This document shows, in pieces, positions 13,395-31,931 of a DNA stretch of 64,000 bases. Under the pieces are notes generated by a model. The model was not told the origin of the DNA and made no database searches. It saw nothing but the letters and a program-made list of their open reading frames with translations. Each line of letters starts with the position of its first letter. Within the stretch, counting starts at the first letter, position 1. The stretch comes from an uncultured Chloroflexia bacterium. Its GTDB lineage: Bacteria > Chloroflexota > Limnocylindria > Limnocylindrales > CSP1-4. The DNA lies in contig CAVVNQ010000015.1 of NCBI GenBank assembly GCA_963749705.1, forward strand, positions 224,001-288,000. Reading direction: 5' to 3'. The position numbers and the translations under genes were made by a program.

Positions 13395-14588
13395 TTGCGG
13401 ACCAGCACCCGACTCGTCGCCCTGGTGGGCGCCGCGTCGTTCGTCTTTGCCGCTTGTGGCGGCAGCACCGCCACCACCGCGCCCCCCGCCAGCCAGGCAC
13501 CCGAGTCCATGGCACCCGAGTCCATGGCACCGGAGTCCATGGCACCGGAGTCCGTGGCCCCGACGTCGAACCTCAAGATCGGCGTTGTCACGGATATCGG
13601 GACGCTCAACGACAAGGGCTACAACGAGTACAGCTTCAAGGGCGCCGAGGACGGCGCCACCGAAATCGGCGCACCTGCGCCGCAGTCGACCGTGCCGAAG
13701 GACGCCTCCGAGTACGCGGCCGACATCCAGGCGTTCATCGACCAGAAGTACGACATCATCGTCACCGTCGGGTTCAACCTGACGAACGACACGGTCGCCG
13801 CGGCACACGCCAACCCCACGATCCACTTCGTGGGCGTGGACCAGTCCCCGGTGTGCGTCGATGAGACGGGCGCCCCGGATGCCACCTTCGCCTGCAAGGG
13901 CGACGCCAAGACCCTCGTCCCGAACTACACCTCGCTGTACTTCGCGGAGGACCAGGCGGGCTATCTCGCCGGGATCGTCGCGGCGTACGCGTCCAAGAAC
14001 GGCTCGGTCGGTGCCATCGGCGGCACCACGCTGTGCGCTCCGTGCGTGCGCTACATCCAGGGCTATGAGCTCGGCGCGAAGTCGGTCAAGTCCGACATCA
14101 AGGTGAGCACGGCCTACGTCACGAACGACTTCTCCGCGGCCGCCTTCAACGACCCGGCCGGCGGCAAGACGTTCGCCCAGACATTCATCAAGGCCAACGG
14201 CGTGGACGTCCTGTTCCAGGTCGCGGGCAAGACCGGCAACGGCGTCCTCGAAGCCGCCTGCCAGGCCGGCATCGACGGCATCGGCGTCGATGTCGACCAG
14301 TGGGTGTCCATCGGGGCGCCCAACAACTCGTGCATCATCACGAGCGCTGAGAAGCACGTCGAGTCGGCCGTGAAGCAGGCCATCGTCGGCATCGCCGCCG
14401 ACAACCTGGCCGCGGGCGACGTCCTGTTCAACGCCGCCAATGACGGCATCGGCGTGTCGCCGTTCCACGACGCCGCCTCGATGTTCGGTCCCGAGGTCCA
14501 GACGGCCCTCGATACCGCGCTCGCCGGCATGAAGGCGGGCACGCTCAAGACCTGCCCCGACACCGGCTGCGGCGTCTACACGCCCTAG
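13395..14588 (+). CDS. BMP-family (PnrA-like) nucleoside ABC transporter substrate-binding lipoprotein
   Basis: GAGGAGG RBS, TTG start, lipobox FAAC, DKGYN, AGYLAG, VAGKTGNG, IGVDVDQ, TSAEK. Confidence 0.92.
   Translation: MRTSTRLVALVGAASFVFAACGGSTATTAPPASQAPESMAPESMAPESMAPESVAPTSNLKIGVVTDIGTLNDKGYNEYSFKGAEDGATEIGAPAPQSTVPKDASEYAADIQAFIDQKYDIIVTVGFNLTNDTVAAAHANPTIHFVGVDQSPVCVDETGAPDATFACKGDAKTLVPNYTSLYFAEDQAGYLAGIVAAYASKNGSVGAIGGTTLCAPCVRYIQGYELGAKSVKSDIKVSTAYVTNDFSAAAFNDPAGGKTFAQTFIKANGVDVLFQVAGKTGNGVLEAACQAGIDGIGVDVDQWVSIGAPNNSCIITSAEKHVESAVKQAIVGIAADNLAAGDVLFNAANDGIGVSPFHDAASMFGPEVQTALDTALAGMKAGTLKTCPDTGCGVYTP
13497..13556 (+). repeat. In-frame 15-bp tandem repeat x4 encoding (APESM)3-APESV linker
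   Basis: GCACC(C/G)GAGTCC(A/G)TG repeated four times. Confidence 0.9.
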
Positions 14589-14608
14589 CCTCCACCGGGT
14601 AAACGGTT

Positions 14609-14642
14609 CGGACGGGTCGGCTGCTTGCGGCCGACCCGTCCG
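14609..14642 (+). terminator. 13-bp hairpin after the BMP gene (stabiliser or attenuator)
   Basis: CGGACGGGTCGGC...GCCGACCCGTCCG. Confidence 0.6.
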
Positions 14643-14679
14643 CATAACCGCCCAGCGCGTACTGCCGGAGTCATCGCTC

Positions 14680-16257
14680 ATGGCCGACTCGACGGGAACG
14701 ATCGTCGCCCCGGCGCTCGAGATGCGAAGCATCACGAAGCGGTATCCGGGTGTGGTGGCCAACGACAGGATCAGCCTCGAGGTCCGCCCCGGGGAGATCC
14801 ATGCCCTGCTGGGCGAGAACGGCGCCGGCAAGACCACCCTCATGAACGTCCTGTACGGGCTGGCAACACCCGACGTGGGCGAGATCCTGCTCGATGGGTC
14901 GCCGGTGCAGATCGCCGGCCCCGCCGACGCGATCGCCCGTGGCATCAGCATGGTCCACCAGCACTTCATGCTGGTGCCGGTGCTCACGGTGGCCGAGAAC
15001 ATCCTCCTGGGGGAGGAGACGATGGCCAACCGGTTCTTCCTCGATCGCAGGGAGGCGCACAAGCGGATCATCGAGCTCGGCCGGCGGTTCGACTTCGAGA
15101 TCGACCCCGAGGTCAAGGTCGGCTCGCTGTCGGTGGGCTGGCAGCAGCGCGTGGAGATCCTCAAGGCGCTGTACCGGAACGCGCGGATCCTCGTCCTCGA
15201 CGAACCGACCGCGGTGCTCACGCCCCAGGAGACGGAGGAGATCTTCGCCGTCCTCCGGCGGCTGGCGGCCGAGGGCCACAGCATCGTATTCATCAGCCAC
15301 AAGCTGTACGAGGTCCTCGAGATCGCGGACCGGATCACCGTCATCCGGCGTGGCCGCGTGGTCGGCGAGCGCACGCCGGCCGAGACCGACGAGGACGACC
15401 TGGCCGAGCTGATGGTCGGTCGCGAGGTCCAGCTGACCGTCGACCGGGGCACGTCGCATCCGGGTGCCACGGTGCTCAACGTGACCGGGCTCGAGGCGAG
15501 CGACGACCGAGGTCACCCGATGGTCAGGGGCGTCGACCTCGAGGTTCGTGCCGGCGAGATCTTCGGCATCGCCGGCGTCGCCGGGAACGGCCAGGACGAG
15601 CTGGTCGAATCGATCATCGGCCTGCGCCATCCCACGACGGGCACGGTCACCCTCGACGGGCTGGACATCACCGCGTACACCCCCCGCCAGATGAACGAGG
15701 CACAGGTCGCGTACGTTCCCGCGGACCGCCACCGGTTCGGCCTGATCCTGTCGTTCCCGCTGGCCGACAACCTGGTCCTGACCAGCTACTACCGGCCGCC
15801 CTATGCCCGCGGGCTCATCCGCGACCGCGAGGCGATCGATCGGGACGCCGCCACGGCGGTCGAGAAGTTCGACATCCGGACGCCGTCCGCAACCGTCAAG
15901 GCGAGCACGCTGTCCGGTGGCAACCAGCAGAAGGCGGTCGTCGCCCGCGAGTTCGACCGGGACCTCAAGCTGCTGATCCTCGACCAGCCGACGCGCGGCC
16001 TCGACGTGGGCAGCATCGAGTTCATCCACCGCCAGGTGATCGCCAAGCGCGACGCGGGCACCGCGGTGCTGCTCGTCTCGGCGGAGCTCGACGAGGTCCT
16101 CGAGCTGTCCGACCGGATCGGCGTCATGTACGAGGGCCGGATCGTCGCCGTCCTCGACGGCCCCACCGCGGACAAGAACGCGGTCGGCCTGCTGATGGCG
16201 ACCGGTGGCGAGGAGCGCGACCCGGCTGCCCGCCCGGTGACGGGAGCCGTGGCATGA
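14680..16257 (+). CDS. Nucleoside/sugar ABC transporter ATP-binding protein with two ATPase domains
   Basis: GENGAGKTT, VHQHFML, DEPTAVLT, LSGGNQQK, QPTRGLD. Confidence 0.95.
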   Translation: MADSTGTIVAPALEMRSITKRYPGVVANDRISLEVRPGEIHALLGENGAGKTTLMNVLYGLATPDVGEILLDGSPVQIAGPADAIARGISMVHQHFMLVPVLTVAENILLGEETMANRFFLDRREAHKRIIELGRRFDFEIDPEVKVGSLSVGWQQRVEILKALYRNARILVLDEPTAVLTPQETEEIFAVLRRLAAEGHSIVFISHKLYEVLEIADRITVIRRGRVVGERTPAETDEDDLAELMVGREVQLTVDRGTSHPGATVLNVTGLEASDDRGHPMVRGVDLEVRAGEIFGIAGVAGNGQDELVESIIGLRHPTTGTVTLDGLDITAYTPRQMNEAQVAYVPADRHRFGLILSFPLADNLVLTSYYRPPYARGLIRDREAIDRDAATAVEKFDIRTPSATVKASTLSGGNQQKAVVAREFDRDLKLLILDQPTRGLDVGSIEFIHRQVIAKRDAGTAVLLVSAELDEVLELSDRIGVMYEGRIVAVLDGPTADKNAVGLLMATGGEERDPAARPVTGAVA

Positions 16258-17408
16258 GCGAGGTTCGCCGGCCCGGCTGGCTGCGGCCGCGGAAGGTCTC
16301 GGCTGCGGGCATCTGGTCGATCGTCGCGGTCCCGGTCACGGTCATCGTCCTGTCGGTGCTGCTGGGCGCGGCGATCGTGCTCTTCTCGGAGCTGCTGGTC
16401 CCGGGCAAGGAGTTCGACTGGGGCCTGCCGCTGGTCGCCTATGGCGCGCTGATCGAGGGCGCGCTGGGCAACCCGGACGCGGTCGTCTCGACGCTCGTCA
16501 ACTCCACGCCGCTGCTGTTCGGCGGCCTCGCGGTCGGCTTCGGCTTCAAGGCGGGGCTGTTCAACATCGGCGCGCAGGGCCAGTTCCTGGTCGGCGCCCT
16601 GGGGGCCGTGATCGTGGGCGTCCAGCTGGCCGACGCGCCCGCGATCGTCGCGATCCCGGCCGCGGCCCTGGCGGGCTTCGTCGCGGGCGGCCTGTGGGGC
16701 TTCGTGCCGGGCTTCCTCAAGGCGGTCTCGGGCGCCCACGAGGTCGTCAGCACGATCATGATGAACTACATCGCGGTCCAGCTCCTGGCGGCGCTCGTGA
16801 GCGGTCCGCTCAAGGTGCCCAAGTCGCCGTCCCCGGTCACGTTCGACGTCGGCAACGCGGCGTTCCCGGTGATCCTGGGGCGCAACGGGCACCTCGGCAT
16901 CGTGCTCGCCCTGATCGCGGCGTTCTTCGTGTGGTGGCTGCTGTTCCGCACCACCTGGGGGTTCGAGGTCCGCGCCGTGGGCGCCAACCCTGACGCGTCG
17001 CGCTATGCCGGCATGCGACCCCGGCTGATCACAATCGCCACCATGACCTTCAGCGGGGCGCTGGCCGGGCTGGCCGGGACGAGCGTGCTGCTGGGCGTGA
17101 CCCACACCATGACGTCGAGCTTCGGCACGACGGTCGGCTTCGACTCGATCGCGGTCGCCCTGCTCGCGCGATCGCACCCGCTGGTCACCATCTTCGCGGC
17201 CCTCCTGTTCGGTGGCATGCGGGCGGGGGCCGGGCTGATGCAGATCCGGGCCCAGATCCCGGTCGAGCTGGTGGACGTGCTCCAGGCGGTGATCCTGCTG
17301 TTCCTGGTCGCGAGCCCCGTGCTCCGCTACGTGCTCCGGGCGCGGGGCCCGGGCCAGGGCGAGCCCATCGTCGCGACCGGTGGCCTGGCGCCCAAGGCGG
17401 CCGCCTGA
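16254..17408 (+). CDS. Nucleoside ABC transporter permease 1
   Basis: GLFNIGAQGQ, HEVVSTIMMNY, GFDSIAVALL. Confidence 0.93.
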   Translation: MSEVRRPGWLRPRKVSAAGIWSIVAVPVTVIVLSVLLGAAIVLFSELLVPGKEFDWGLPLVAYGALIEGALGNPDAVVSTLVNSTPLLFGGLAVGFGFKAGLFNIGAQGQFLVGALGAVIVGVQLADAPAIVAIPAAALAGFVAGGLWGFVPGFLKAVSGAHEVVSTIMMNYIAVQLLAALVSGPLKVPKSPSPVTFDVGNAAFPVILGRNGHLGIVLALIAAFFVWWLLFRTTWGFEVRAVGANPDASRYAGMRPRLITIATMTFSGALAGLAGTSVLLGVTHTMTSSFGTTVGFDSIAVALLARSHPLVTIFAALLFGGMRAGAGLMQIRAQIPVELVDVLQAVILLFLVASPVLRYVLRARGPGQGEPIVATGGLAPKAAA

Positions 17409-18493
17409 TGGACATCACGCAGCTGTTCGACGCGCTGTACGCCATCCCGTTGCTGGGGATCCTGTTCCAGGCGGTCGGCTTCCTGGTCGCGGTCATCCCA
17501 TCCAACGCGCCCAACATCATGAACCAGGCGACCCCGCTCGCCCTGGCCGCCCTGTGCGGCGTGCTGTGCGAGCGCTCGGGCGTGGTCAACATCGGCATCG
17601 AGGGCACGATGCTCGCGGCCGCGTTCACGGCATGGGTCGTCGGCGTTGCCGTCAACCCGATGTTCGGCAGCCCGGCGCCCGGCGAGGTGTTCGGCCTGAC
17701 CATCCCGCTCCTGATCTGCCTCCTCGCCGCGGTGCTGGTGGCGGTCGTGATCTCCGCGCTCCATGCGTGGCTCTCGATCTCGCTCCGCGCGGACCAGATC
17801 ATCAGCGGCACGATCATCAACATCGCGGCGTTCGGGGTGACCGGCTATCTCGACCAGCTGATCTCGCGATCCTCGCCGGCCGGTGCCGGCAGCTTCGCCG
17901 CGTTCAGGCCGCCGGCCGAGCTGATCCAGATCCCCGTGATCGGCTGGATCATCGACATGTTCCTCGCCCAGGGCCCGATCGCGATGTCCACGATCGTGAT
18001 CATGGTGGGCGCCCAGATCTGGCTGTTCCGGACGCGCTGGGGGCTCCGGACGCGCGCCGTCGGCGAGCACCCGCGCGCCGCGGAGACCGTCGGCATCGAC
18101 GTGATCCGGCTGCGCTACCGGAACGTGATGCTGGGCGGCGTGTTCGCCGGCCTCGGCGGCGCCTGGCTGAGCATCGAGGCCACCAACTCGTTCCAGATCG
18201 GGATGACCACCGGACGCGGCTTCATCGCGCTGGCCGCGATGATCATGGGTCGCTGGACGCCGATCGGGGCGTTCGGCTCGGCCCTCCTGTTCGCACTGTT
18301 CCTCCAGATCAGCCAGCTGATCAAGATCGCGCCCCCGACGGGCGACCTGGGGGTCGTGATGCGGTCGGTGCCCGCGCAGCTGTGGGATGCGCTCCCGTAC
18401 CTGCTCACGATCGTGATCCTGGCCGGCGTCGTCGGTCGGAGCGTCCCGCCGGCCGCCGACGGGCAGCCGTACGAGCGCGAAGCGGCGGCCTGA
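17408..18493 (+). CDS. Nucleoside ABC transporter permease 2
   Basis: ERSGVVNIGIEG, AVGEHP, GRGFIALAA, LPYLLT. Confidence 0.93.
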   Translation: MDITQLFDALYAIPLLGILFQAVGFLVAVIPSNAPNIMNQATPLALAALCGVLCERSGVVNIGIEGTMLAAAFTAWVVGVAVNPMFGSPAPGEVFGLTIPLLICLLAAVLVAVVISALHAWLSISLRADQIISGTIINIAAFGVTGYLDQLISRSSPAGAGSFAAFRPPAELIQIPVIGWIIDMFLAQGPIAMSTIVIMVGAQIWLFRTRWGLRTRAVGEHPRAAETVGIDVIRLRYRNVMLGGVFAGLGGAWLSIEATNSFQIGMTTGRGFIALAAMIMGRWTPIGAFGSALLFALFLQISQLIKIAPPTGDLGVVMRSVPAQLWDALPYLLTIVILAGVVGRSVPPAADGQPYEREAAA

Positions 18494-18497
18494 GCCC

Positions 18498-19496
18498 GTG
18501 ACGCCGGGCGACGCCGAGCGGGCGGCCGCCCTCGCCGCGCTGCCGGGCCGGCCGCCGGGGGGCGAGCCGCGACCGGTGATCCTGGACTGCGACCCCGGAC
18601 ACGACGATGCGCTGGCGATCCTCCTGGCCTGCGCCTCGCCCGGGCTCGAGGTCCTGGGCGTCACGACCGTTGCCGGCAACTCGGGGCTCGCCAACACCAC
18701 GCGCAACGCGCTGCGGGTGCTGACGCTGCTCGACCGGACGGACATCCCGGTGGCCGCGGGTGCGGCCCGGCCGCTGGTCCAGGATCCGCTGATCCAGCCG
18801 GCGTTCCACGGTGATTCAGGGCTGGACGGCTCGGACCTGCCCGACGCCGCGATGGGCGCACGTCCCGAGGCCGCGGTCGAGCTGATGGCGTCGCTGGTCC
18901 GCGCGTCCCCGGCGCCGGTGACGCTCGTGCCCACCGGACCGCTGACCAACGTCGCGCTGTTCCTGCGCGCCTTCCCGTCGCTCCACGATCGGCTCGGCGC
19001 GATCTCGCTGATGGGCGGCTCGCTGGGCGCGGGCAACACCACGGCCTCGGCCGAGTTCAACATCTGGCAGGATCCGGAGGCCGCCGCGATCGTGTTCGGG
19101 GCGGGCGTCCCGATCCTGATGGCGGGCCTGGACGTGACCCACCAGGCGCTGGTGCTGCCGGAGGACGTTGCCCGGCTGGAGGCGCTGGGCACCCGGACCG
19201 GGCACGTGTTCGCGGACCTGATGCGGTTCTTCGCCATCCACCACCGCAACCGGTACGGCTGGCCCGGCCCGCCGATCCATGATGCGGTCGCGGTCGGGGT
19301 GCTGGTCGCCCCGTGGCTCGTCGAGCGCCGCCGGATGCGCGTCGACGTCGAGATCGGCGATGGGCTGACCCGGGGGCGAACGGTCGGGGACGAGGAGGGG
19401 ATCAGCGGCCGGCCGCCGAACGCGGAGGTTGGGATCCGGCTCGATCGGGAGGGGCTCATCGACCTCGTCGTCGACGCCGTCGCGCGCTTCCCCTAG
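18498..19496 (+). CDS. Inosine/uridine-preferring nucleoside hydrolase (Rih family)
   Basis: DCDPGHDD, HGDSG, GPLTN, AEFNIWQDPEAA, IHD. Confidence 0.95.
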   Translation: MTPGDAERAAALAALPGRPPGGEPRPVILDCDPGHDDALAILLACASPGLEVLGVTTVAGNSGLANTTRNALRVLTLLDRTDIPVAAGAARPLVQDPLIQPAFHGDSGLDGSDLPDAAMGARPEAAVELMASLVRASPAPVTLVPTGPLTNVALFLRAFPSLHDRLGAISLMGGSLGAGNTTASAEFNIWQDPEAAAIVFGAGVPILMAGLDVTHQALVLPEDVARLEALGTRTGHVFADLMRFFAIHHRNRYGWPGPPIHDAVAVGVLVAPWLVERRRMRVDVEIGDGLTRGRTVGDEEGISGRPPNAEVGIRLDREGLIDLVVDAVARFP

Positions 19497-23297: not shown

Positions 23298-23325
23298 CTG
23301 CTGCTCGTGCCCGCCGCTCAGCGTC

Positions 23326-24021: not shown

Positions 24022-24088
24022 GGCGCGAGTATGGCAGCGGCCGATGCGCGCGGTGAGTGCCGACGGTCAGGGCCCGCGAGCCCGAGCG

Positions 24089-24469
24089 TCAGCGATGCCC
24101 GTGTTCGCGGGCCAGCTCCTGCAGCCGCGCGTCGGAGATCCCGAAGTGGTGGGCAATCTCGTGATGGACGGTGTCGATCACCTTGGCGCGCATGGCCTCG
24201 GGGGTTCGGTGGTGCTGCGCGATCGTGCCCCGGAAGATCGTGATCCGCGACGGAACCGCGGCGGAGTCCGCGCCCCAGGCCGAGCGCGGCACGCCCTGGT
24301 AGATCCCATACAGTCCGGCGGCGCCAACGGAGGCGAGCTGCGCCGGCGTCGGCCAGTCCTCGACCACGATCGCGACGCTGCCCAGCCGGTCGCGGAATGC
24401 CGCGGGCAGGGCGTCGATCGCCTCGGCCACCCAGGTCTCGAACGTCTCGTCGTCGATCGGCTCGTGCAT
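24089..24469 (-). CDS. Zincin-like metallopeptidase family protein (DUF1025 type)
   Basis: YGIYQGVP, ITIFR, HEIAHHFG. Confidence 0.88.
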   Translation of the reverse strand: MHEPIDDETFETWVAEAIDALPAAFRDRLGSVAIVVEDWPTPAQLASVGAAGLYGIYQGVPRSAWGADSAAVPSRITIFRGTIAQHHRTPEAMRAKVIDTVHHEIAHHFGISDARLQELAREHGHR

Positions 24470-24524
24470 GTCGTGTGGGGAGGGTATCCCGACCGGTGGA
24501 GCCGCGACGCACGGGAGCCTGGCG

Positions 24525-25286
24525 TCAGCTGGTGGACACGGCCTTGAGCCCCGGCCTTGTCGTCGCGACGCGGGCGCTCCAGGGGACGCCCAGCCTGGGC
24601 AGCAGGTAGCGGTCCACCCCGTAGTAGCCGGCGACACGCCAGCCCAGGATCAGCCCGATGGCCAGGGCGAACATGACCGGGTTGACCGATGTCGAACCCG
24701 CCAGCAGGTAGGACATGTTCATGGTGGTGCCGAAGAAGGCCGCGATCCCGACCAGGGCGCCGGTCAGCAGGGCGATGCCGACGGCGAGCTCACCCAGGGC
24801 GATCAGCCAGCCGAACCAGCTCTGGGCCTGGATGTCGATCAGGAACTGGAGAAACGAGCGGTACCAGTCGAAGGTGATCGGGGCCGAGCCCTGTGCCGGC
24901 ACCTTGACCGCGTTCTGCCAGTAGCCGAGCAACGATGCGCCGCCGTCCGTCCAGCCGGTACCCGAGAGCTTGTGCCAGCCCGCGACGGCCCACTCGAAGC
25001 CCAGGAAGATCCGGATCGGCAGCCAGAACAGGCCCGCCCGAGTGTTGCTGAACAGGTAGCGGGTGAACGCCGGTCCCTCGACCTCGACAACCTCGGCGCC
25101 GGGCGACCTGCGGTCCTCGAACATCAGGACCACAACGACGACCGTGAGCACCCAGAACAGAATCGTCGCGACGGTCAGCGCCGTGGACCCCTGGGCGGGG
25201 TAGAACCACGGGTTCTCCATATAGACCAGGATCACCGCCGCGATCAGCGCGAGGGGCGTGACAAGGGACCGGTAACGAGCAAGCAC
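24525..25286 (-). CDS. DoxX/DoxD-family membrane protein
   Basis: GGAGG RBS; RIFLGFEWAVAGWHK, GELAVGIAL, MNMSYLLAGSTSVNP, GYYGVDR. Confidence 0.88.
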   Translation of the reverse strand: MLARYRSLVTPLALIAAVILVYMENPWFYPAQGSTALTVATILFWVLTVVVVVLMFEDRRSPGAEVVEVEGPAFTRYLFSNTRAGLFWLPIRIFLGFEWAVAGWHKLSGTGWTDGGASLLGYWQNAVKVPAQGSAPITFDWYRSFLQFLIDIQAQSWFGWLIALGELAVGIALLTGALVGIAAFFGTTMNMSYLLAGSTSVNPVMFALAIGLILGWRVAGYYGVDRYLLPRLGVPWSARVATTRPGLKAVSTS

Positions 25287-25456
25287 GGCAACCTCCCGGC
25301 GCCGCCCGGGTCCGTGGTCCGGTGATCACGGGCGGGCGACGATCGAGTGGCCATCCCGAGAGTAGGGGACGAGACCGCGGAACCCGCGTCGACGATGGTG
25401 GGGTCCCGCAATGCCCGCGGGGCGGTGCCCTTTGACGGGATGATGCGCAGCCGCAC

Positions 25457-25473
25457 GTGAGAAGCCGCTGAGA
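25457..25473 (-). promoter_or_regulatory. Candidate OmpR-family binding box TCTCAG-N5-TCTCAC upstream of the doxX-like gene
   Basis: Hexamer direct repeat at 11-bp period, 11 nt before a -10-like CATCAT (25445-25440). Confidence 0.45.
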
Positions 25474-25510
25474 TGGCGCGGCAGCACGGACCGGGCACCG
25501 GGTGAGGTCG

Positions 25511-25534
25511 GCGTAGAGCCGGCATAGAGCGCGG
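25511..25534 (+). promoter_or_regulatory. Candidate SARP operator 1 (TAGAGC-N5-TAGAGC)
   Basis: GCGTAGAGCCGGCATAGAGCGCGG, 21/24 identical to the box at 30282-30305 (-). Confidence 0.65.
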
Positions 25535-25615
25535 ATCGGGATCGTGCGCCGCGGGCTTCCACTACGGGCGCCGCGTCCAAGTGAGATAGGTCCGCGAAGC
25601 AGGAGCCGAGCTTCC

Positions 25616-26482
25616 ATGACGTTCCGATCCCGCATGCGTCGCACCTGGGCGATCGCCGTGACCATCCCGCTCGTCCTGTCTGCCGTTGCTGCCTGTTCCG
25701 GGTCGACGGCAGCCACGAGCGATGCAGCCAATCCGCCGAGTGCCACCCCGGCGGCAACGCCGGTCGCGACGGCGAGCCTGCCGGCGACGGCAAGCCCGCC
25801 GGCGTCGGCAGCGCCGTCCGAGGCGGCGTCCCCGCTGACCGTGACCTCCTCACTCGCGGACGGACCGCTCGCGCGCGCCGTCGAGTGGACTGCGCGCGTT
25901 TCCGGACCCACCGACGTGGCGATCGACCGTGTCGAATTCCTGCTCGACGGGAAGGTGGCCTGGACCGAGCACAACCCGCCGTACACGTTCAACGACGACG
26001 GCAACGTGCTCATGCCGTGGGCGCTCGAGCCTGGGACGCACCAGCTCGCGATCAACGTCGTCACGGCCTCGGGTGTCGCCACTTCGGCCCCGGTCACGGT
26101 GACCACGGACCGTCCGCCGGTGCCCGAGGCGCTTCTCGACCAGCGGTTCGTGCGGACCGTGCCGGCGAGCGCGACGGGACCCGTCGGCGACTGGCACCTG
26201 AAATTCGCGGCGGACGGCGTGATCACCTTGACCGACCCATGGGGCGGAGGTGTGACCGAGGGATTCCAGGCCGCTGCGGACGGGACAATGTCCCTGTACG
26301 GGCCGGCGAACTGGGTTGCGCCGGCCTCCCTCCGCGGCAGCATCTGCGACTACGCGGAGGGCGCGGTCGCAATGGGCTGGCAGGTCAAGGGCTCCGAGCT
26401 GACGCTGTCCTCCGGCGATCGCCCCGACCCGTGTCCGGATCGCGCATTCCTGTTCGTCGGCACCTGGACGGTCAGCCCCTGA
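25616..26482 (+). CDS. Hypothetical lipoprotein with Ig-like domain
   Basis: AGGAG RBS, lipobox VAAC, Ala/Pro/Ser linker, VEFLLDG...EHNPPYTF. Confidence 0.75.
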   Translation: MTFRSRMRRTWAIAVTIPLVLSAVAACSGSTAATSDAANPPSATPAATPVATASLPATASPPASAAPSEAASPLTVTSSLADGPLARAVEWTARVSGPTDVAIDRVEFLLDGKVAWTEHNPPYTFNDDGNVLMPWALEPGTHQLAINVVTASGVATSAPVTVTTDRPPVPEALLDQRFVRTVPASATGPVGDWHLKFAADGVITLTDPWGGGVTEGFQAAADGTMSLYGPANWVAPASLRGSICDYAEGAVAMGWQVKGSELTLSSGDRPDPCPDRAFLFVGTWTVSP

Positions 26483-26557
26483 GAATCGCTTGACCGGGCG
26501 CCTCACGACGGCGACGATCCACCTTCGACCAACGGTCCTGACGCGCTGAGGGTTGCG

Positions 26558-29500
26558 ATGGACTTTCGCCTGCTCGGATCGCTCGAGGCCGTGGCCGGTG
26601 GGGTCACGGCCGACCTTGGGCCGCCCAAGCAGCGCGCCCTGCTCGCGGTCCTGTTGCTGCACGCCGGGGAGATCGTCTCCGTCGATCGGCTGATCGACGA
26701 CCTGTGGCCGGAGGCGCCGCCGCGCACGGCGGCGCACTCGATCCAGATCTACGTCTCGGAGCTGCGCAAGGCACTGTCGCGGCTCGCGCCCGGCGAGCTC
26801 ATCGTCACGCGCCAGCCGGGCTACCAGCTGCAGGCGCCCGACGATGCGATCGACACCCGCCGGTTCGAGCGGCTGGTCGAGGAGGGCCTGCAGCGCCTCC
26901 GGACGGGCGACCGGGTCGGGGGCATGGAGCGGCTTCGGGCGGCCCTGACCCTGTGGCGGGGGCCCGTCCTGTCCGACTTCGCCTACGAGGAGTTCGCCCA
27001 GCCGTACATCCGGCGGCTCACCGATCGGCATCTCGACGCGATCGAGGAGCTCGCCGCCGCGGAGCTCCTGGCCGGGCTCGTCGCCGACGCGCTTTCGCTC
27101 GTGGAGGCGGCCGTTCGCGAGGACCCGCTCCGCGAGCGGTCGCGCGAGATCCTGATGCTCGCGCTCTCCCGATCGGGTCGCCACGCCGAGGCCCTCCGGA
27201 CGTACCAGCGGCTCCGGGAGCTGCTCGACGACGAGCTCGGGCTGGATCCATCGCCGGCACTCCAGCAGCTCCAGCAGCGGATCCTGCTCCACGACCCGTC
27301 CCTCGCGCCGGCCTCGGAGGTTGCCGCGGGAACCGAGGAGCGGGCTCGAAATCCGTACAAGGGCCTGCGCGCGTTCACCGAGCAGGACGCCGCCGACTTC
27401 TTCGGCCGGGACGACCTGGCCGACCGCCTCGTCGACAGCCTGCGGGCCGGCCAACGCCTCGTCGCGCTCGTCGGCCCCTCGGGTTCGGGGAAGTCCAGCG
27501 TTCTCGCGGCCGGCCTGATCCCCAGGGTTCGCGCCGGCGCGATCGCGGGGTCTGTGCAGTGGGACGTCGTCCACGTCATCCCCGCGACCAACAACCTGGC
27601 TGAGATCGAAGCGACGGTGCGGACGCCGGCACCGCACCGACGGCTGCTCGTGCTCGACCAGTTCGAGGACCTGTTCGCCGTCGCCGACGAGCCGGCCAGA
27701 CGGCGCTTCCTCCAGACGATCTCGGCAGCGCTCCGTGACCCGGATGGAGCGGTCACGGTCGTGCTCGCCCTGCGGGCCGACTTCTACGACCGCCCGCTGC
27801 TCGATCCGGCGTTCGCCGAGATCTTCATCCCGGGCGTCATGAACGTCGTGCCCATGACGACCGACGAGCTCAAGGCGGCCGTCGCGGGCCCTGCGGAGCG
27901 TGCCGGGGTGAGCGTCGAGCCGGGGCTGCTCGCCGAGCTCGTCGCGGACACCGTGGCGCAGCCTGCGGCGCTGCCGCTGCTCCAGTTCGCCCTGACCGAG
28001 CTGTTCGACCGCGGCAACGGCGTGACGCTGACCCTGGCCGAGTACCGGGCGCTCGGCGCGCTCCACGGGATCCTGTCGCGCCGCGCCGAGGCCCTCTACG
28101 GTGGGCTCGACGCCGCCGGACGCCAGGTCGCCATGCAGGTGTTCCTGCGCCTCGTACGTCCCGGTCGGTCACCGATCGATTCGAGGCGGAGGCCATCGCT
28201 GTCGGAGCTCACAGACCTCGACGTCGACCCGGTCGCCCTGTCCGAGGTCCTCGACAGCTTCGGCCGCCACCGGCTCCTGGCCTTCGACCGCGACCCGGTC
28301 ACCGGCGACGCCACGGTCGAGGTGGCCCACGAGGCGCTGCTCCGCGAATGGGATCGCCTCGCCGGCTGGATCGATCGCCACCGCGCGGCTCTGCGGCGCC
28401 ACAGCTCGTTCGCCTCGGCCGCGGAGGAGTGGGAGGCCGCCGACCGCGACCCGGACTATCTCCTGACCGGGACACGCCTGGCGGAGTTCGAGACGACGAT
28501 CCGCGAGGGAGCGCTCCAGCTCACCGGGCGTGAGCGAGCGTTCCTCGAAGCGAGCCTGGAACGACGGCGCTCCGAGCAGGCGACTCAGACCGCGAGCGCC
28601 GCGGCCAGCCGCCGCCTGGAACGGCTTGCACGGATCCGCCTCGTGGGGCTCGGGATCGCGGTCGCGGCCGTGATCGTGCTCGGCGGGTACACCGCCCTGG
28701 GTCTCGCCACCCCGGTCCGGGCGCCCGTCTCGCTCATCTACAACGGGGACGGCGCGTGGTCGGTCGCGCTGATCGTCCAGGGCGGCTTCGATCGGGCGGT
28801 CACGGACTTCGGGCTGACCTCGCGCAAGATGTCCGTCATTTCCGGTCCGGCGGCGGACGACGCGATGCGGAGCGTGTCCCAGGGTGGCTCCGCGCTGGTG
28901 GTCGCGGCGGCCGTGGACGCCAACGTGGATTCCGTCGCGGCGGACTTCCCCGACACGCGCTACGCCGTGATCGACTTGCCCGCCGCGGAGCCCAACGTGA
29001 TCCACCTGGCGTTCGGTGACAACGAGAGCTCGTTCCTCGCCGGCGTGGTGGCGGCGAAGACGACGCGTACCGGCACGATCGGCTTCATCGGGGGCGCGGA
29101 CGGTCCCGTGATCTGGCCGTTCGCCGCGGGCTACGAGGCCGGGGCCCGGGCGGTGGACCCGTCGATCCGGATCCTGTCGGCGTACCTCGGCCGGGACGGC
29201 GACTACGAGGCCTACGTCGACCCGGCGGGCGCGTCCTCGGAGGCCATGTCGCAATTCCGCGGCGGCGCCGACGTCATCTTTGCGGCCGCGGGCGACTCGG
29301 GTGTCGGCGTGTTCAGTGCGGCGACCAGCGAATCGACAGCGCAGGGACGCCAGCTGTGGGCGATCGGCGTGGACTCGGACCAGTACGTAACCGTGGGCGA
29401 CAACCCGGTCAACGTCGGCTGGCGCGACTGGCAGCCGCACATCCTGACATCGGTCCTCAAGCGGATGGACACCGCGGTGTACGACCTGCTGGCGCAGTAC

Positions 29501-29719
29501 GCACGTGGCGATCTCGCGACCGGTACGCGGCGCCTCGGCCTCGCCGCCCATGGGGTCGACCTCTCGACCAGCGGCGGCTTCATCGATGGGCTTCGCGCCG
29601 AGATCGACACCTGGCGCGCGCGGATCGTCGCGGGGTCCGTCGCGGTGCCGTGCATCCCGGTCGGGCGCGAGGCCCAGGCTGGCGCGCTGGGCATCGACCC
29701 GACCGGGTGCGGCGGCTGA
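26558..29719 (+). CDS. SARP-family regulator fusion: wHTH-BTAD-STAND NTPase (nSTAND1-like)-TM-BMP ligand-binding domain
   Basis: FRLLGSLE/KQRALLAVLLL; ALTLWRG, DPLRE, ELGLDPS; NPYKGL, FFGR, GPSGSGKSS, LVLDQFEDLF, LPLLQFALTELF, VAHEALL; TM near 28640-28705; SFLAG, IGFIGG, ADVIFAAAG, IGVDSDQ, TSVLK. Confidence 0.9.
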   Translation: MDFRLLGSLEAVAGGVTADLGPPKQRALLAVLLLHAGEIVSVDRLIDDLWPEAPPRTAAHSIQIYVSELRKALSRLAPGELIVTRQPGYQLQAPDDAIDTRRFERLVEEGLQRLRTGDRVGGMERLRAALTLWRGPVLSDFAYEEFAQPYIRRLTDRHLDAIEELAAAELLAGLVADALSLVEAAVREDPLRERSREILMLALSRSGRHAEALRTYQRLRELLDDELGLDPSPALQQLQQRILLHDPSLAPASEVAAGTEERARNPYKGLRAFTEQDAADFFGRDDLADRLVDSLRAGQRLVALVGPSGSGKSSVLAAGLIPRVRAGAIAGSVQWDVVHVIPATNNLAEIEATVRTPAPHRRLLVLDQFEDLFAVADEPARRRFLQTISAALRDPDGAVTVVLALRADFYDRPLLDPAFAEIFIPGVMNVVPMTTDELKAAVAGPAERAGVSVEPGLLAELVADTVAQPAALPLLQFALTELFDRGNGVTLTLAEYRALGALHGILSRRAEALYGGLDAAGRQVAMQVFLRLVRPGRSPIDSRRRPSLSELTDLDVDPVALSEVLDSFGRHRLLAFDRDPVTGDATVEVAHEALLREWDRLAGWIDRHRAALRRHSSFASAAEEWEAADRDPDYLLTGTRLAEFETTIREGALQLTGRERAFLEASLERRRSEQATQTASAAASRRLERLARIRLVGLGIAVAAVIVLGGYTALGLATPVRAPVSLIYNGDGAWSVALIVQGGFDRAVTDFGLTSRKMSVISGPAADDAMRSVSQGGSALVVAAAVDANVDSVAADFPDTRYAVIDLPAAEPNVIHLAFGDNESSFLAGVVAAKTTRTGTIGFIGGADGPVIWPFAAGYEAGARAVDPSIRILSAYLGRDGDYEAYVDPAGASSEAMSQFRGGADVIFAAAGDSGVGVFSAATSESTAQGRQLWAIGVDSDQYVTVGDNPVNVGWRDWQPHILTSVLKRMDTAVYDLLAQYARGDLATGTRRLGLAAHGVDLSTSGGFIDGLRAEIDTWRARIVAGSVAVPCIPVGREAQAGALGIDPTGCGG

Positions 29720-29748
29720 CCTCGGCCCCGCCGGCGGCAATGGCTGGG

Positions 29749-30195
29749 TCAGGGAATGACGGCGATCCCGACGTAGTGATCGTCGATCCCCTCCGCGTCG
29801 CACGAGTTGGTCGGGTAATACGTCCCGACGAGGGTCCCGGCACCGTGCATGCCCGCGAGGCTGCCGGTGCCGCCCGTGACCACCCAGCTGCCTTGGTCCT
29901 GCGGGTCGCAGGGGCGGACGCTCGCATGGATGTGGACATCGAAGGACCCGCCCGCGCAGGTGAACGTCTCGTGGACGTCGAACACGAGCGCCGCGCCGCG
30001 ACCAACGACCCGTGTGTCCTGCGCCAGGGTTCCGGCGTCGCAGTCCGGCAGCCCGGTGGCCGTGAACGTTGCCGGCCCTTCGAACCCGACGTGGGCGTCG
30101 ATCGTCACCGGCGTGGCAGCCGCGCCGCGGACCGGCGACACCGCCAGCGCGAGGAGCATCGAGGCCCCGATGAGAGAAGCAGATCGCCTGCGCAT
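29749..30195 (-). CDS. Small secreted beta-rich hypothetical protein
   Basis: AGGAGG RBS, Sec signal peptide, 4 Cys, WVVTGGTGSLAGMHGAGT. Confidence 0.75.
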   Translation of the reverse strand: MRRRSASLIGASMLLALAVSPVRGAAATPVTIDAHVGFEGPATFTATGLPDCDAGTLAQDTRVVGRGAALVFDVHETFTCAGGSFDVHIHASVRPCDPQDQGSWVVTGGTGSLAGMHGAGTLVGTYYPTNSCDAEGIDDHYVGIAVIP

Positions 30196-30281
30196 CTGTG
30201 CGCCTCCTGATCGCGGGTCGTGTCGCTGGCGACACCACTCCGGGCGACCCGTTCCCGAGTGGCGCCCGCCCAGCGTCCACG

Positions 30282-30305
30282 CTGCGCTCTATCGCGGCTC
30301 TACGC
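30282..30305 (-). promoter_or_regulatory. Candidate SARP operator 2 (TAGAGC-N5-TAGAGC)
   Basis: Minus strand reads GCGTAGAGCCGCGATAGAGCGCAG, 86 nt before the ATG at 30195. Confidence 0.65.
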
Positions 30306-30369
30306 GGCCGCTTCGCTTCCTCTGCGCAACGGTGGGACGTGGCGAGGGCCCGTGGCGAGGCCTGCCGGA

Positions 30370-31931
30370 TCAGCGGTTGGTGTGCTCCGTCGCGACCGTC
30401 CCGATGCGCTCGATCCCGGCGAACACGTCCGCGTAGTCGCGTACGGTTGTCGCGATCCCGGCCGGCTCGGGAGTGGGTGCAGCCCCGGCCACCGACGGGA
30501 CCGACGGCGCGGCCGCCGCCGCGACCTCGCTCGCCACCGTCGACACGACCCCGGCCGCGCGCCCGATCCAGCGCGGGAGGAATGCCGAGTTCGGGATCGT
30601 GCCGGCATCCATGCCGCTCGTCGTCCGGCGCAGCAGCGCCTCGATCTCGGGGCGGAGCCCGAGCGCCACGCCCCATACCAGGGCCTGGTCCGGGGTCTCG
30701 AGCCACTTGAGGCCAGTCGCCGTAACGGCGTCATCGAGCGTCGCCGACGTCGCGAACGTTGCCTTGAGCGTGCGGCGATACGCGGCCAGCTGGGCCTTCA
30801 TCACGGCGCCCTCGTGCGTGCGCGAGGCCATGAACCGGGCCAGGAGCCAGGTCGCGACGCCGCCGCCCGCGATGCCCAGGCCGACCCCGTAGACGAGCCC
30901 CTGGTCCGTGGCGCCCGCGGACGCCACCACCAGGCCGGCGACGACCTCGACCGCCGCCAGCCCCTCCCACTTCCAGCGGGCGATGAACGAGAGTCCCTTG
31001 ATCCAGCCCTTGCGGCGGGCGTAGTTCTCGACGAACGTCGCGAACCCGAGCGGCGGATGGAACCGCAGCGCGCGATCGCCGGGGATGTACGGCCCGGTCG
31101 CCCCGTCGGAGCCGGAACCGGTCGCAGACGCGGGGGCACCAGCAACGCGGTGCTTGCCCAGCCACGTGGTGAGCTCCGCCATCTCCTGGGCGGACGGGGC
31201 ATGCCCGGTGACGTCCTCGACGTGCCTGGCGAACGCCTCGGGATCCGCCGTCACCGCGTCGGGGTTGGCGAGCACCTCGCGCATGAGCGCCATCATCGGC
31301 GCCTGCCTCGCCTGGGAGGTGCGCAGCGATTCCGGGACCGGCTTGCCCGCCCGGGTGAGCGCCCCGATGAGCGACGCCTGGAGATCGGGTGTCGGTCCCG
31401 AGGTCATCCCCTCGACGAGGTCGCCGGGTGCGATGCCCTCAGGGCCCTTGGCCAGCGCGGCCGCGATGAACCCCGAGAACTCGGACATGGCAACCACGGC
31501 TTCCATGGCCCGGGCGTCGCCGGCGTCGTCGGCGACGTCGATCGCGGCATACGTCTTGAGGTTGGCGAGCAGCCAGGCCTCACCCTCGCCGACGGGCCGG
31601 CGACGGTTGAGCTGGATGCGGGGAGCATCCGTGTGCGTGCCGTGGATCTCGATCCCGACCCGGTGGGCGCCCCGCGCGTCGGGCGTCTCGTCGACGGAAC
31701 GCGATCTCGTCGCGGCTGGCGAGGTCGAACAGGGCGGCCATGAACGCGGTCGTCGCCGGTCCGCCGTCCACGATCGTCGCGGTTGCGGCCGTCATCCCCT
31801 CCGGCGGCGCGGGCAGGAGGATCGAGGCGATCATCGAGATACGAGGGGTCGCGGCCGGTCGCCCGCCAGCGCACCAGGACCCAACCCACCACGACCGCGA
31901 AGGCCACCAGCCCACCGACGATCGCCTGCAT
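30370..31931 (-). CDS. DUF2207-like membrane protein, 2-3 frameshifts in the 5' part (near 31830 and 31690)
   Basis: GGAGG RBS; W..TGRDP, PPEGMTAA, ALFDLASR, MASRTHEG, WGVALGL. Confidence 0.6.

Follow-up and report, generated by a model that had tools for sequence, protein, structure and literature searches.

A membrane-spanning SARP-STAND regulator with a BMP/PnrA-fold ecto-domain and candidate SARP boxes flanking its gene cassette

The window, a 64,000-nucleotide stretch of DNA from an uncultured Chloroflexia bacterium, contains a single open reading frame that encodes a 1053-residue regulator, P0001. The regulator gene is the middle member of a three-gene cassette that is bordered on both sides by a candidate SARP box. 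The locus comprises the following features.

25513..25530, + strand: candidate SARP box 1, GTAGAGC-cggc-ATAGAGC, direct repeats spaced at 11 nt (motif search, PWM)
25540..25545, + strand: -10-like hexamer GATCGT, 9 nt past the second heptamer of box 1 (fixed offset)
25616..26482, + strand: gene of a 288-aa lipoprotein, the first to follow box 1, with lipobox AVAAC, a linker of Pro/Ala/Ser and a weak match to an Ig-like domain
26558..29719, + strand: regulator gene P0001 (1053 aa)
26624..27286, + strand: SARP module, OmpR-type wHTH (residues 23-91) and BTAD (98-243) (Pfam)
27353..28456, + strand: nSTAND1 NTPase (residues 266-633) (Pfam)
27473-27496, + strand: Walker A motif GPSGSGKS of the NTPase, from residue 306
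27647-27670, + strand: Walker B motif LVLDQFED of the NTPase, from residue 364
28526..28711, + strand: neck helix running into the TM helix (helix 657-711 in the model, with its hydrophobic core at about 695-718) (hydropathy, AF2 model)
28712..29716, + strand: extracytoplasmic BMP/PnrA-fold domain (residues 719-1053) with the C-terminal Cys pair C1032 and C1051 (profile, AF2 model)
29749..30195, - strand: gene of P0195, a small secreted protein of 148 aa with Cys residues and a signal peptide; it lies behind box 2 and converges with the regulator gene
30286..30303, - strand: candidate SARP box 2, GTAGAGC-cgcg-ATAGAGC, with a -10-like GACGCT at 30272-30277

Domains of P0001 were called with Pfam profiles against their curated cut-offs, and all four domains score far above them. 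The SARP module begins with a Trans_reg_C wHTH (43.1 bits, cut-off 26.2), directly followed by a BTAD domain that spans the full profile (positions 1-146; 136.2 bits, cut-off 22.1). The nSTAND1 NTPase also covers its profile in full length (positions 1-379) with 337 bits against a cut-off of 27.1. The Walker A motif starts exactly at nt 27473, and it and the Walker B motif are both intact, as the sequence-only reading had stated. NTPase residues G306-S314, D367 and E370 are invariant among 55 family members, and so are the recognition-helix residues W50, P55, R56, A58, H60, S61, Q63, Y65, S67, L69 and R70. Neither NB-ARC nor TPR was found above the Pfam cut-off in P0001. The NCBIfam AfsR equivalog NF053617, which has a cut-off of 1430 bits, reaches 174.6 bits and aligns with residues 2-313 only.

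P0001 contains one strongly hydrophobic stretch, with a Kyte-Doolittle 19-mer maximum of 2.26 at residues 690-708 and hydrophobic character up to about residue 718 (nt about 28640-28711). Hydropathy thus agrees with the single TM helix that had been placed at about 28640-28705. Because the sequence RRLERLARIR precedes this stretch, an N-in/C-out orientation is assigned to P0001. The topology is based on hydropathy, the positive-inside rule and the conserved extracytoplasmic Cys pair, which is present in 108 of 138 family proteins. A hydrophobic segment occupies the equivalent place in 124 of the 138 full-length family proteins. The order wHTH, BTAD, STAND NTPase, helical region, TM helix and BMP domain that had been read from the sequence is reproduced by Pfam, hydropathy and structural models.

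The layout of P0001 resembles that of the ToxR/CadC-type activators, in which an N-terminal cytoplasmic OmpR-type wHTH is joined by one TM helix to a C-terminal sensor outside the cell. P0001 has the same three elements in the same order, and the likeness is one of design. P0001 differs from the ToxR/CadC-type proteins in the approximately 600 residues of BTAD and STAND NTPase between the wHTH and the membrane and in a BMP fold that is unrelated to their sensor domains.

The fusion of a SARP-STAND regulator to an ecto-domain recurs widely. Bmp is present in 112 of the best 120 NTPase-region matches, and all four Pfam families occur in 84 of 120 among the matches listed (both counted by eye). 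The ecto-domain is found in 67 of the best 150 representatives at 50% identity, 61 of which have a TM segment before it. The source genome is an assembly of 22 contigs with 88% completeness, which might favor an assembly or gene-calling artefact as the origin of the fusion. However, the reading frame is continuous, its GC3 is uniform (0.91, matching the neighbor genes), the helix of the AF2 model is unbroken across the junction between the NTPase and the ecto-domain, and many independent records share the architecture, including the complete genome of a cultured strain. The likelihood of an artefact is negligible; this explanation, like the assembly chimera considered beforehand, is already refuted for practical purposes. 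Cultured carriers of the family include Oryzobacter terrae NBRC 109598 (L052) and Fodinibacter luteus JCM 17809 (L043). P0001 is a real and widespread variant of the SARP-STAND regulators.

This variant apparently has no earlier description. In the available portions of open-access main texts, including PMC8195603, PMC13581612, PMC10972967 and PMC9602780, the combination of a TM helix and an SBP ecto-domain was found described for neither SARP nor STAND proteins. The available part of a 2024 SARP review divides the SARPs into small, medium, large and SARP-LAL classes and contains 0 occurrences of 'membrane' or 'transmembrane'. In databases, family proteins are automatically annotated as 'BMP family ABC transporter substrate-binding protein', a misleading name for a transcription regulator of 1000 residues.

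P0001 was compared with SARP-containing proteins of other architectures. AfsR and the other 'large' SARPs (SARP, NB-ARC/NOD and TPR) share with P0001 an N-terminal OmpR-type wHTH and BTAD, a STAND NTPase behind them and a sensor at the C-terminus. P0001 is distinguished from AfsR by an nSTAND1 instead of an NB-ARC NTPase, the lack of TPRs, the location of the sensor across the membrane and the repeat core TAGAGC. The closest non-BMP relatives, the SARP-(Pkinase)-nSTAND1-WD40 proteins, have the SARP module, nSTAND1 and the neck in common with P0001, whereas their sensor is a cytoplasmic β-propeller and a TM helix is not expected. Six of seven sampled non-BMP relatives carry WD40 and the seventh carries PQQ_2, in line with the statement that nSTAND1-type NTPases usually end in WD40 repeats. 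In P0001, a C-terminal WD40 or TPR sensor in the compartment of the NTPase is absent, and the TM helix and BMP domain are found instead.

The Pfam Bmp match in P0001 (residues 789-1017, 124.4 bits against 24.1) covers profile positions 74-284 only. In contrast, positions 12-310 of the 328-position ecto-domain family profile align with BMP proteins of solved structure (E values of 7e-65 to 2e-44), and AF2 models residues 719-1053 with a pLDDT of 94.4. The ecto-domain is therefore complete, which substantiates the proposed full BMP/PnrA-like domain. Foldseek TM-scores between the model and BMP proteins are 0.71-0.83 (by query or target length). The best matches in both sequence and fold (PnrA, BmpD, Lbp-guanosine and TmpC) are all nucleoside-binding. 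The ecto-domain shares the fold, the ribose Asp and Lys and one stacking Phe with PnrA/TmpC, BmpA/BmpD and Lbp, which are lipoproteins of ABC importers. Unlike these proteins, it lacks a lipobox and is anchored by the preceding TM helix rather than by a lipid, no permease or ATPase genes or other transporter genes adjoin it, and the Phe and Asn of the N-lobe are replaced.

The putative ligand pocket was analyzed by comparison with BmpA. BmpA residues F151, F176, V224, D225 and K242 correspond to P0001 F826, F855, V938, D939 and K968, which are conserved in the family. The residue at position 826 is aromatic in 138/138 family proteins and that at 855 in 136/138. The ribose-holding D939 is retained as Asp in 131/138 and K968 as Lys in 125/138. 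The equivalent of BmpA D98, D806, is present in P0001, but its column is variable (D in 53/138 by local alignment; D/E in 20/23 in A2). In the C-lobe and hinge, conservation of the pocket residues far exceeds the average identity per column across the ecto-domain (35%). In the N-lobe, the stacking Phe27 and the Asn28 of BmpA are replaced by Val736 and Ala737; position 736 is V/I/L in 88/138 family proteins and F in 16/138. The aromatic sandwich around the nucleobase (BmpA F27 and F176) is therefore incomplete in P0001, in which F855 is kept and V736 takes the place of F27.

The pocket is not degenerate, and nucleoside sensing as suggested by the sequence-only reading is borne out in part: the Asp and Lys at the ribose positions and one of the stacking aromatic residues argue for it, and the Val/Ala pair in place of the second stacking Phe and the Asn argues against it. 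Alternatively, the ecto-domain might bind a protein or envelope partner, possibly one of the exported proteins thought to be co-regulated with it, or only serve to anchor or dimerize P0001, a role that Med (2hqb), a protein of BMP fold designated a comK activator, may also have. The match of Med to the family profile (E 7.8e-21), the variable pocket residues of the N-lobe and a cassette that always couples the regulator to exported proteins fit this alternative. However, the strong conservation of the C-lobe and hinge pocket is not predicted by a purely structural role, and we regard the alternative as unlikely.

The BMP-type ABC operon that had been noted about 12 kb upstream of the regulator gene is real and contains the following genes.

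13396..19496, + strand: whole operon, genomic context (SBP lipoprotein, ATPase, two permeases, nucleoside hydrolase)
about 13396 to 14588, + strand: SBP lipoprotein gene
14680-16257, + strand: ABC ATPase gene
16254-17408 and 17408-18493, + strand: permease genes
18498-19496, + strand: inosine-uridine nucleoside hydrolase gene

The operon raises a second alternative, in which purine nucleosides, such as those released by cell lysis, are the ligands of the ecto-domain and the ABC transporter and hydrolase genes are the targets of the regulator. The only two Bmp domains of the source genome are those of P0001 and the transporter SBP (13396-14588), and the nucleoside-binding best matches and the five conserved pocket residues described above are also consistent with this scheme. 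The proposed tie between the regulator and the operon is nonetheless not supported at the DNA level: neither a box with ≤2 mismatches nor a PWM match is found upstream of the operon. The operon is not syntenic with the regulator gene in 80 related loci, and in a congener the cassette sits elsewhere without the operon as a neighbor. Moreover, the transporter SBP retains Tyr-Asn where P0001 has Val736/Ala737, and in the accessible part of the BmpA study, the F27A change abolished binding (PMC13325309). Taken together, nucleoside-dependent control of this operon is quite unlikely. A second 11-nt tandem repeat upstream of the SBP gene (13269-13290, CATGGAGGCCG/CAGGGAGGCCG) shows no sequence relationship to the box, and the number of equally good tandem 11-mers does not stand out from chance (5 positions, compared with 2.55 on average over 20 shuffles).

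The candidate operator consists of two 11-bp direct repeats (cGTAGAGCg) located 9 nt before a -10-like hexamer (CANNNT, counted below as NANNNT). Only two sites with ≤1 mismatch exist in the 3.6 Mb genome, and they flank the three-gene cassette. A PWM built from other genomes only ranks box 1 (25513) first genome-wide at 31.0 bits, and the next site scores 19.4. The 80 related loci contain 42 box matches, whereas 10 shuffles yield 4-12 and 30 permuted heptamers 0-19; the motif was derived from these same 80 loci, and only the own-genome scan, the congener, the contrast between helices and the spacing to the -10 do not depend on that derivation. NANNNT, which lies outside the search pattern, is positioned exactly 9 nt downstream in 25 of 40 boxes against a chance expectation of about 1 in 40, estimated from base composition.

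The box is linked to the recognition helix. Of 46 loci that encode the family's version of this helix, 28 have a box close to the gene, compared with 0 of 34 loci that do not (Fisher 1.2e-9, relatedness uncorrected); the other 18 of the 46 lack a box with ≤2 mismatches. The regulator itself is the gene behind the box in 10 loci. In three Intrasporangiaceae loci with the helix sequence HAVQ instead of HS[IV]Q, the boxes read GTTGAGC, a co-variation that counts as one event because the three loci are related.

The accessible text of PMC10936776 describes SARP promoters in which repeats are 11 or 22 bp apart and the 3' repeat is about 8 bp from the -10, and in which the afs box spans -40 to -19 and is followed by CACTGT as a weak -10. 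Like the boxes of P0001, AfsR promoters in this source have two 11-bp direct repeats that replace the -35 at an equal distance from a weak -10. The 9-nt offset of NANNNT from the heptamer agrees with this geometry, since reading the heptamer as TAGAGCN shortens it to 8 nt. A scan of 25300-30500 detected no canonical sigma-70 promoter and no intrinsic terminator. The lipoprotein gene is probably co-transcribed with the regulator. The SARP-type candidate operator beside the gene lends support to the earlier view of P0001 as a one-component transmembrane transcription activator.

Among 20 relatives, only the congener G010 contains an orthologue of P0001, and the flanking box pair is likewise restricted to it. 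In the congener, the cassette and its two boxes recur in other genomic surroundings; its lipoprotein is 74% identical and its P0195 homologue 81% identical. Homology with the congener is confined to the cassette, and nucleotide homology stops at 30305. P0195 has no Pfam match, and in the Atlas it falls into unnamed clusters only (0.93), with recognition below the reliable range. Its homologues adjoin the regulator in L013, L021 and L052, each behind a box, and of 19 window neighbors checked, the small secreted protein alone recurs beside the gene (4 loci). The largest neighbor cluster in the search for conserved operon partners, LAL-type regulators (AAA_16 and GerE) in 14 loci, occupies varying positions and is regarded as a sign of family abundance, not linkage.

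In the genus, the cassette is patchy and occurs in 2 of 13 searched genomes, including that of the window. This distribution, together with the naming of nSTAND1 in the context of counter-invader systems in the available part of PMC8195603, would suit a conflict or immunity protein rather than a housekeeping signal transducer. Such a role is highly improbable: the effector is a putative transcription activator with a conserved candidate operator, the sensor lies outside the cell, and the PADLOC match is of P-loop length only (E 3.7e-4).

P0001 is probably a membrane-spanning one-protein receptor that activates itself and two neighboring exported-protein genes. As a single-pass membrane protein with its N-terminus inside, it would hold the SARP module and the nSTAND1 switch in the cytoplasm, and a helix of about 55 residues would run from the end of the STAND module through the membrane to the two-lobed BMP/PnrA-fold domain. 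A small ligand, probably ribose- or polyol-bearing and not necessarily a canonical nucleoside, would close the outside domain. The signal may travel via the neck and TM helix, most likely through altered self-association; a self-association prediction for residues 640-1053 returned a score of 0.00 against a mark of 0.42, which gives no answer either way. The NTPase would thereby be freed from an ADP-locked, auto-inhibited state. Two SARP modules would then bind side by side to the 11-bp direct repeats, which replace the -35, and recruit RNA polymerase. The box 1 promoter is predicted to drive the lipoprotein gene and the regulator, resulting in positive autoregulation, and the box 2 promoter to drive P0195.

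STAND/NLR switches are understood as cytoplasmic, with a sensor that holds the NTPase shut by direct contact. In all STAND proteins studied to date, to our knowledge, the sensor contacts the NTPase domain. The sensor of P0001 cannot touch the NTPase, and the coupling step is therefore one for which we found no precedent. NTP-dependent oligomerization, as initially suggested, may be part of this step. However, the switch may be poorly described by the term 'oligomerization', as ATP altered neither the oligomeric state nor the DNA binding of AfsR in vitro in the accessible text of PMC10936776.

A large natural family with its sensor beyond the membrane raises the question of how a STAND switch is thrown via one helix and offers a simple bacterial system for its study. 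As far as we know, SARPs have been described almost wholly as soluble proteins that activate the antibiotic gene clusters of Streptomyces; the P0001 family extends them to membrane-bound receptors of uncultured soil lineages. The analysis provides a 22-bp candidate operator, two predicted promoters, a three-gene regulon, pocket residues for mutation and the two cultured carriers as experimental handles.

We tentatively consider it possible that P0001 represents a transmembrane counterpart of the NLRs, in which a STAND NTPase is gated from outside by a solute-binding domain via one rigid helix and the ligand is perhaps nucleoside-like. With its own operator pair, P0001 might form part of a 'sense and secrete' cassette of three genes that is movable and activates itself, and might belong to an unrecognized class of one-component receptors of soil Actinomycetota and Chloroflexota. 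The outside sensors (Bmp or SBP_bac_1) and the inside transducers (nSTAND1, Ser/Thr kinase or both) of such a class would be interchangeable. In all three nSTAND1 proteins of the source genome, a TM helix is followed by an SBP-type ecto-domain. Variants of about 862 aa that combine the BMP ecto-domain, a SARP and a Ser/Thr kinase account for 11 of 120 among the matches listed. In EmbR/PknH and AfsR/AfsK, the Ser/Thr kinase and the SARP under its control are separate proteins, whereas the BMP-SARP-kinase fusions in the database join the same functional partners in one chain. P0001 itself differs from these systems in having no kinase domain, and in P0066 and P0086 the BMP ecto-domain is fused to both a kinase and nSTAND1.

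The regulator P0001 is encoded by a single open frame whose third-position GC (0.91) is similar to that of real genes nearby. It contains four Pfam domains, each far above its curated cut-off and in the order proposed by the sequence-only reading (wHTH, BTAD, STAND NTPase and BMP).

Features of the regulator P0001 (Pfam scores with cut-offs in brackets)
26558–29719, plus strand: regulator ORF, single open frame, 1053 residues
Residues 23–91: Trans_reg_C, 43.1 bits (26.2)
Residues 98–243: BTAD, 136.2 bits (22.1)
Residues 266–633: nSTAND1, 337 bits (27.1)
From residue 306 (nt 27473): Walker A, GPSGSGKS
From residue 364: Walker B, LVLDQFED
Residues 789–1017: Bmp, 124.4 bits (24.1)

Both Walker motifs are intact, as had been proposed. 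The one TM helix of that reading corresponds to a single strong hydrophobic stretch that reaches approximately residue 718 (Kyte-Doolittle 19-mer peak of 2.26), and the arginine-rich RRLERLARIR on its N-terminal flank puts the N-terminus, by prediction, inside. The first 73 positions of the Bmp profile are absent from the Pfam match in P0001. A profile of 23 family ecto-domains (length 328) aligns with solved BMP proteins over positions 12–310, matching Lbp (E 7.1e-65), pneumococcal PnrA (8.8e-63), TmpC (5.2e-61), BmpA (1.8e-46), BmpD (1.9e-44) and Med (7.8e-21). The AF2 model of residues 719–1053 has a pLDDT of 94.4, and its top Foldseek matches are all nucleoside-bound BMP proteins with TM-scores of 0.71–0.83 (query or target length). 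The profile alignment and this model bear out the claim of a full BMP domain. In the full-length model (pLDDT 86.0, pTM 0.58), the STAND module is followed by one unbroken helix (residues 657–711) that enters the membrane segment. Collectively, the domains, motifs, hydropathy, profile and models confirm the earlier observation on 26558–29719 almost to the base.

The possibility of an assembly chimera is not borne out, as the architecture recurs across a large family. In a search with residues 680–1053 only, among proteins of 579–1843 aa, 84 of the 120 matches listed carry all four Pfam families (counted from the listing), and 11 more combine SARP, Ser/Thr kinase and Bmp but lack nSTAND1. With the NTPase region (residues 255–690) as query, there were 7666 matches among 8000 scored, and Bmp was present in 112 of the best 120 (counted by eye). 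After 50% clustering, the ecto-domain is found in 67 of the best 150 representatives and is directly preceded by a hydrophobic segment in 61 of them; such a segment lies at the expected position in 124 of 138 full-length database members. Among species-representative genomes, tblastn verified at least 588 of the 598 pattern matches as relatives of the query. The best 80 of these at least 588 relatives were retained as related loci, whose record titles name Chloroflexia/Limnocylindrales, Acidimicrobiia, Thermoleophilia and Actinomycetes, including cultured Intrasporangiaceae. The fusion is, judged by this recurrence, a genuine member of a large family, whose proteins are named in databases as either 'BMP family ABC transporter substrate-binding protein' or 'BTAD domain-containing putative transcriptional regulator'.

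The family varies in composition. SARP-Pkinase-Bmp variants of ∼862 aa were observed (P0094, P0095, P0100, P0103, P0107, P0108, P0111, P0113, P0114, P0118 and P0120), and P0066 and P0086 (1342–1497 aa) contain all four families plus the kinase (SARP-Pkinase-nSTAND1-Bmp). The kinase-bearing Bmp variants, reminiscent of AfsK/AfsR, would act as a Rosetta-stone link of Ser/Thr kinase, SARP and STAND. Many members, mostly from Acidimicrobiia (L030, L031, L035, L040, L071 and L084), extend 105–312 residues beyond the BMP domain, as do 33 of the 67 BMP-bearing representatives; this extension has a conserved cysteine and no assigned family. The whole-protein tblastn match does not lie within one open frame at 14 loci (L013, L014, L017, L024, L025, L033, L034, L039, L042, L045, L046, L058, L072 and L081), likely owing to assembly frameshifts or real splits; some database entries from the same contigs end before the BMP domain (e.g. 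P0121, 824 aa).

The window's own genome (3.6 Mb, 22 contigs, 88% complete) encodes three nSTAND1 proteins over the cut-off, P0001 included, and all three have the same neck followed by a single TM helix and a solute-binding-type ecto-domain.

Paralogues in the window's own genome
G000:C16:43593–47513 (L009:594–4514): SARP-nSTAND1-TM-SBP_bac_1, 1306 aa
G000:C15:107963–112706 (L010:964–5707): Pkinase-nSTAND1-TM-SBP_bac_1, 1293 aa

A separate SARP ORF (324 aa) in another frame overlaps and precedes the kinase-bearing paralogue; the pair is either a true two-gene arrangement or one fusion gene broken by a frameshift. Among relatives that lack an outside domain, SARP-(Pkinase)-nSTAND1-WD40 proteins are the nearest. 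WD40 repeats occur in six of seven sampled and a PQQ_2 propeller in the seventh, so the earlier statement that WD40 is usual in nSTAND1 proteins is true for this clade. The TM-plus-SBP sensor is a recurrent alternative to WD40.

Membrane-bound wHTH activators are known, as are SARP-STAND regulators. Searches in the main text of openly available full-text papers found no account of a STAND or SARP protein that joins a TM helix to a solute-binding domain outside the cell, and the word 'membrane' does not occur in a 2024 SARP review. SBP-type domains serve as receptor sensor domains, according to the excerpt of PMC9602780. The membrane-spanning SARP-STAND family that P0001 represents is widespread yet apparently unstudied, and a predicted operator and minimal regulon make it directly testable.

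The conserved BMP nucleoside site (BmpD and PnrA, PMC7093131) contains, in the excerpt of PMC13325309, an aromatic sandwich of BmpA F27 and F176, neither of which tolerates replacement by alanine, together with F151, V224, D225 and K242; the ribose is held by D98, D225 and K242. These residues were mapped onto P0001 by profile alignment and counted over 138 family members.

Pocket residues of BmpA, their P0001 equivalents and family counts (n = 138)
F27: V736; V/I/L 88, F 16
N28: A737; D 55, N 7
D98: D806; D 53, F 30 in a poorly aligning loop (D/E in 20 of 23 in the 23-sequence alignment)
F151: F826; Y/F 138
F176: F855; F/W/Y 136
V224: V938; V 114, A 20
D225: D939; D 131
K242: K968; K 125

Conservation across the 138 members, notably at F826, F855, D939 and K968, indicates that the pocket is under selection and not degenerate. 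A C-terminal cysteine pair (C1032 and C1051), present in 108 of 138 members, is as expected of an exported domain. The idea of a nucleoside ligand stands in part: the pocket is conserved, but its base-recognising N-lobe half (V736 and A737) has diverged and is unlike that of any nucleoside binder characterised so far. The own-genome transporter SBP keeps Tyr-Asn at the F27/N28 position. Another ribose- or polyol-bearing or heteroaromatic ligand is tentatively favoured, a canonical nucleoside is doubtful, and the absence of any small ligand, with a protein or envelope ligand as an alternative, is unlikelier still.

The recognition helix is invariant at W50, P55, R56, A58, H60, S61, Q63, Y65, S67, L69 and R70 in 55 members that are otherwise 49–93% identical to P0001, and the upstream regions of orthologues were therefore searched for common words. 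Ten of the 69 upstream regions contain the word CGTAGAGC, in several instances paired at a distance of 11 nt near −100. GTAGAGC-N4-GTAGAGC with up to two mismatches gives 42 matches in 30 of the 80 loci, versus 4–12 in 10 shuffles and 0–19 for 30 permuted heptamers; merging of arrays leaves 40 boxes, including the window's two. A NANNNT hexamer (e.g. CAGGCT, CAGCCT, CATCGT or GACGCT) lies exactly 9 nt past the second heptamer in 25 of the 40; it was not part of the box search, and its chance expectation is ∼1/40 as estimated from base composition. The same layout characterises SARP promoters in the excerpt of PMC10936776, where direct repeats lie 11 or 22 bp apart and the 3′ repeat is 8 bp from the −10 element. 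At afsS, two SARP protomers occupy a 22-bp box (−40 to −19) side by side, upstream of a weak −10 element, CACTGT (PMC10936776). In 10 loci the box precedes the regulator gene itself, and in four (window, L013, L021 and L052) it precedes a gene for a homologue of P0195, a small secreted protein. The remaining genes behind boxes mostly encode signal-peptide or lipobox proteins without a Pfam family, in addition to one DctP-type binding protein and one lipoprotein alpha/beta-hydrolase.

In the own genome, 16 sites on both strands match the box with up to two mismatches, three of them tRNA genes. Only the two that flank the regulator, 25513 (+) and 30303 (−), have at most one. A weight matrix built from other genomes' sites only ranks 25513 first genome-wide (31.0 bits versus 19.4 for the runner-up). 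A box lies near the gene (up to 1.3 kb upstream or 0.9 kb downstream) in 28 of the 46 loci with the family recognition helix and in none of the 34 whose SARP-nSTAND1 protein is a paralogue with another helix (Fisher 1.2e-9, kinship among loci ignored). Three loci with helix HAVQ, versus HS[IV]Q otherwise, have GTTGAGC repeats; because these loci are related, the co-variation is one evolutionary event and only suggestive of a helix–box link. At C15:445758 (−), C15:330193 (−) and C18:137938 (+), the own genome also contains direct repeats GTTGAGC-N4-GTTGAGC and GTCGAGC-N4-GTCGAGC, the latter twice with identical flanks; these sites may be operators of its other SARPs.

Features of the cassette
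25513–25530, plus strand: box 1, precedes the lipoprotein gene
25540–25545: hexamer GATCGT, precedes the lipoprotein gene
25616 (ATG) to 26482 (stop): lipoprotein gene
26558: regulator start, 76 nt after the lipoprotein gene, behind a GAGGG ribosome site
30195 (ATG, behind AGGAGG): P0195, ending 30 nt from the regulator stop
30277–30272, minus strand: hexamer GACGCT, precedes P0195
30303–30286, minus strand: box 2, precedes P0195

No terminator-like site was found between the lipoprotein gene and the regulator. Among 20 relatives, only the congener G010 has a regulator orthologue (ecto-domain 85% identical), and it alone has a plus-strand and a minus-strand box 4.8 kb apart. The orthologue is thus found in 1 of 12 congeners and in none of eight small genomes (1.0–1.4 Mb) of the same order. 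The G010 locus matches the window only across a stretch (89.5% over 4552 nt) that runs from the lipoprotein gene up to 30305, at the border of box 2. The cassette proteins are 74%, 92% and 81% identical, and the outer neighbours seen in the window are all missing there. This limit suggests that the unit is a three-gene cassette bounded by its two candidate operators. It is patchy, occurring in 2 of 13 searched genomes of the genus, the window's own included.

Upstream of the cassette, a HAMP histidine kinase, an OmpR-type response regulator and a Zincin_1 metallopeptidase-like gene (21831–24637, minus strand) are not conserved with it. Downstream, a long GH15/glucodextranase-like ORF (31085–34648, plus strand) has Pfam matches only from residue 381 on, so its true start is probably later than called. 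LAL-type regulators (AAA_16 and LuxR-type GerE) lie at variable positions within 6 kb of the regulator in 14 related loci (e.g. L013:3571–6315).

ATP binding frees the SARP module of AfsR from inhibition by its NTPase and sensor, and MalT and GutR need inducer and then ATP (excerpt of PMC10936776 and work cited there). By analogy, ligand binding outside the cell would relieve inhibition of the SARP module by the NTPase and sensor. Because the sensor cannot touch the NTPase, the signal would travel along the single neck/TM helix, most likely as a change in self-association, which would supply two SARP protomers for the two-repeat box. Alternatively, the cytoplasmic part may be released by proteolysis. 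From the box positions, the regulator is predicted to activate its own expression and to control two exported proteins.

A further alternative assigns the regulator to nucleosides and the upstream BMP ABC operon (13396–19496, plus strand). The operon is real and complete, encoding an SBP lipoprotein, an ATPase, two permeases and an inosine-uridine nucleoside hydrolase, and it holds the only other Bmp domain of the own genome. The regulatory tie suggested by proximity is only putative: no box was found at the operon (up to two mismatches, or by weight matrix), it was not found as a neighbour of the regulator in related loci, and it is absent beside the G010 cassette. A tandem 11-nt repeat (CATGGAGGCCG/CAGGGAGGCCG, 13269–13290) between the BMP SBP gene and its divergent upstream neighbour was rejected as an operator; its sequence is unrelated to the GTAGAGC box and its count no better than chance. 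The SBP gene likely starts at TTG 13396, behind GGAGGAG, and a cytochrome P450 gene (19429–20787, plus strand) directly follows the nucleoside hydrolase gene.
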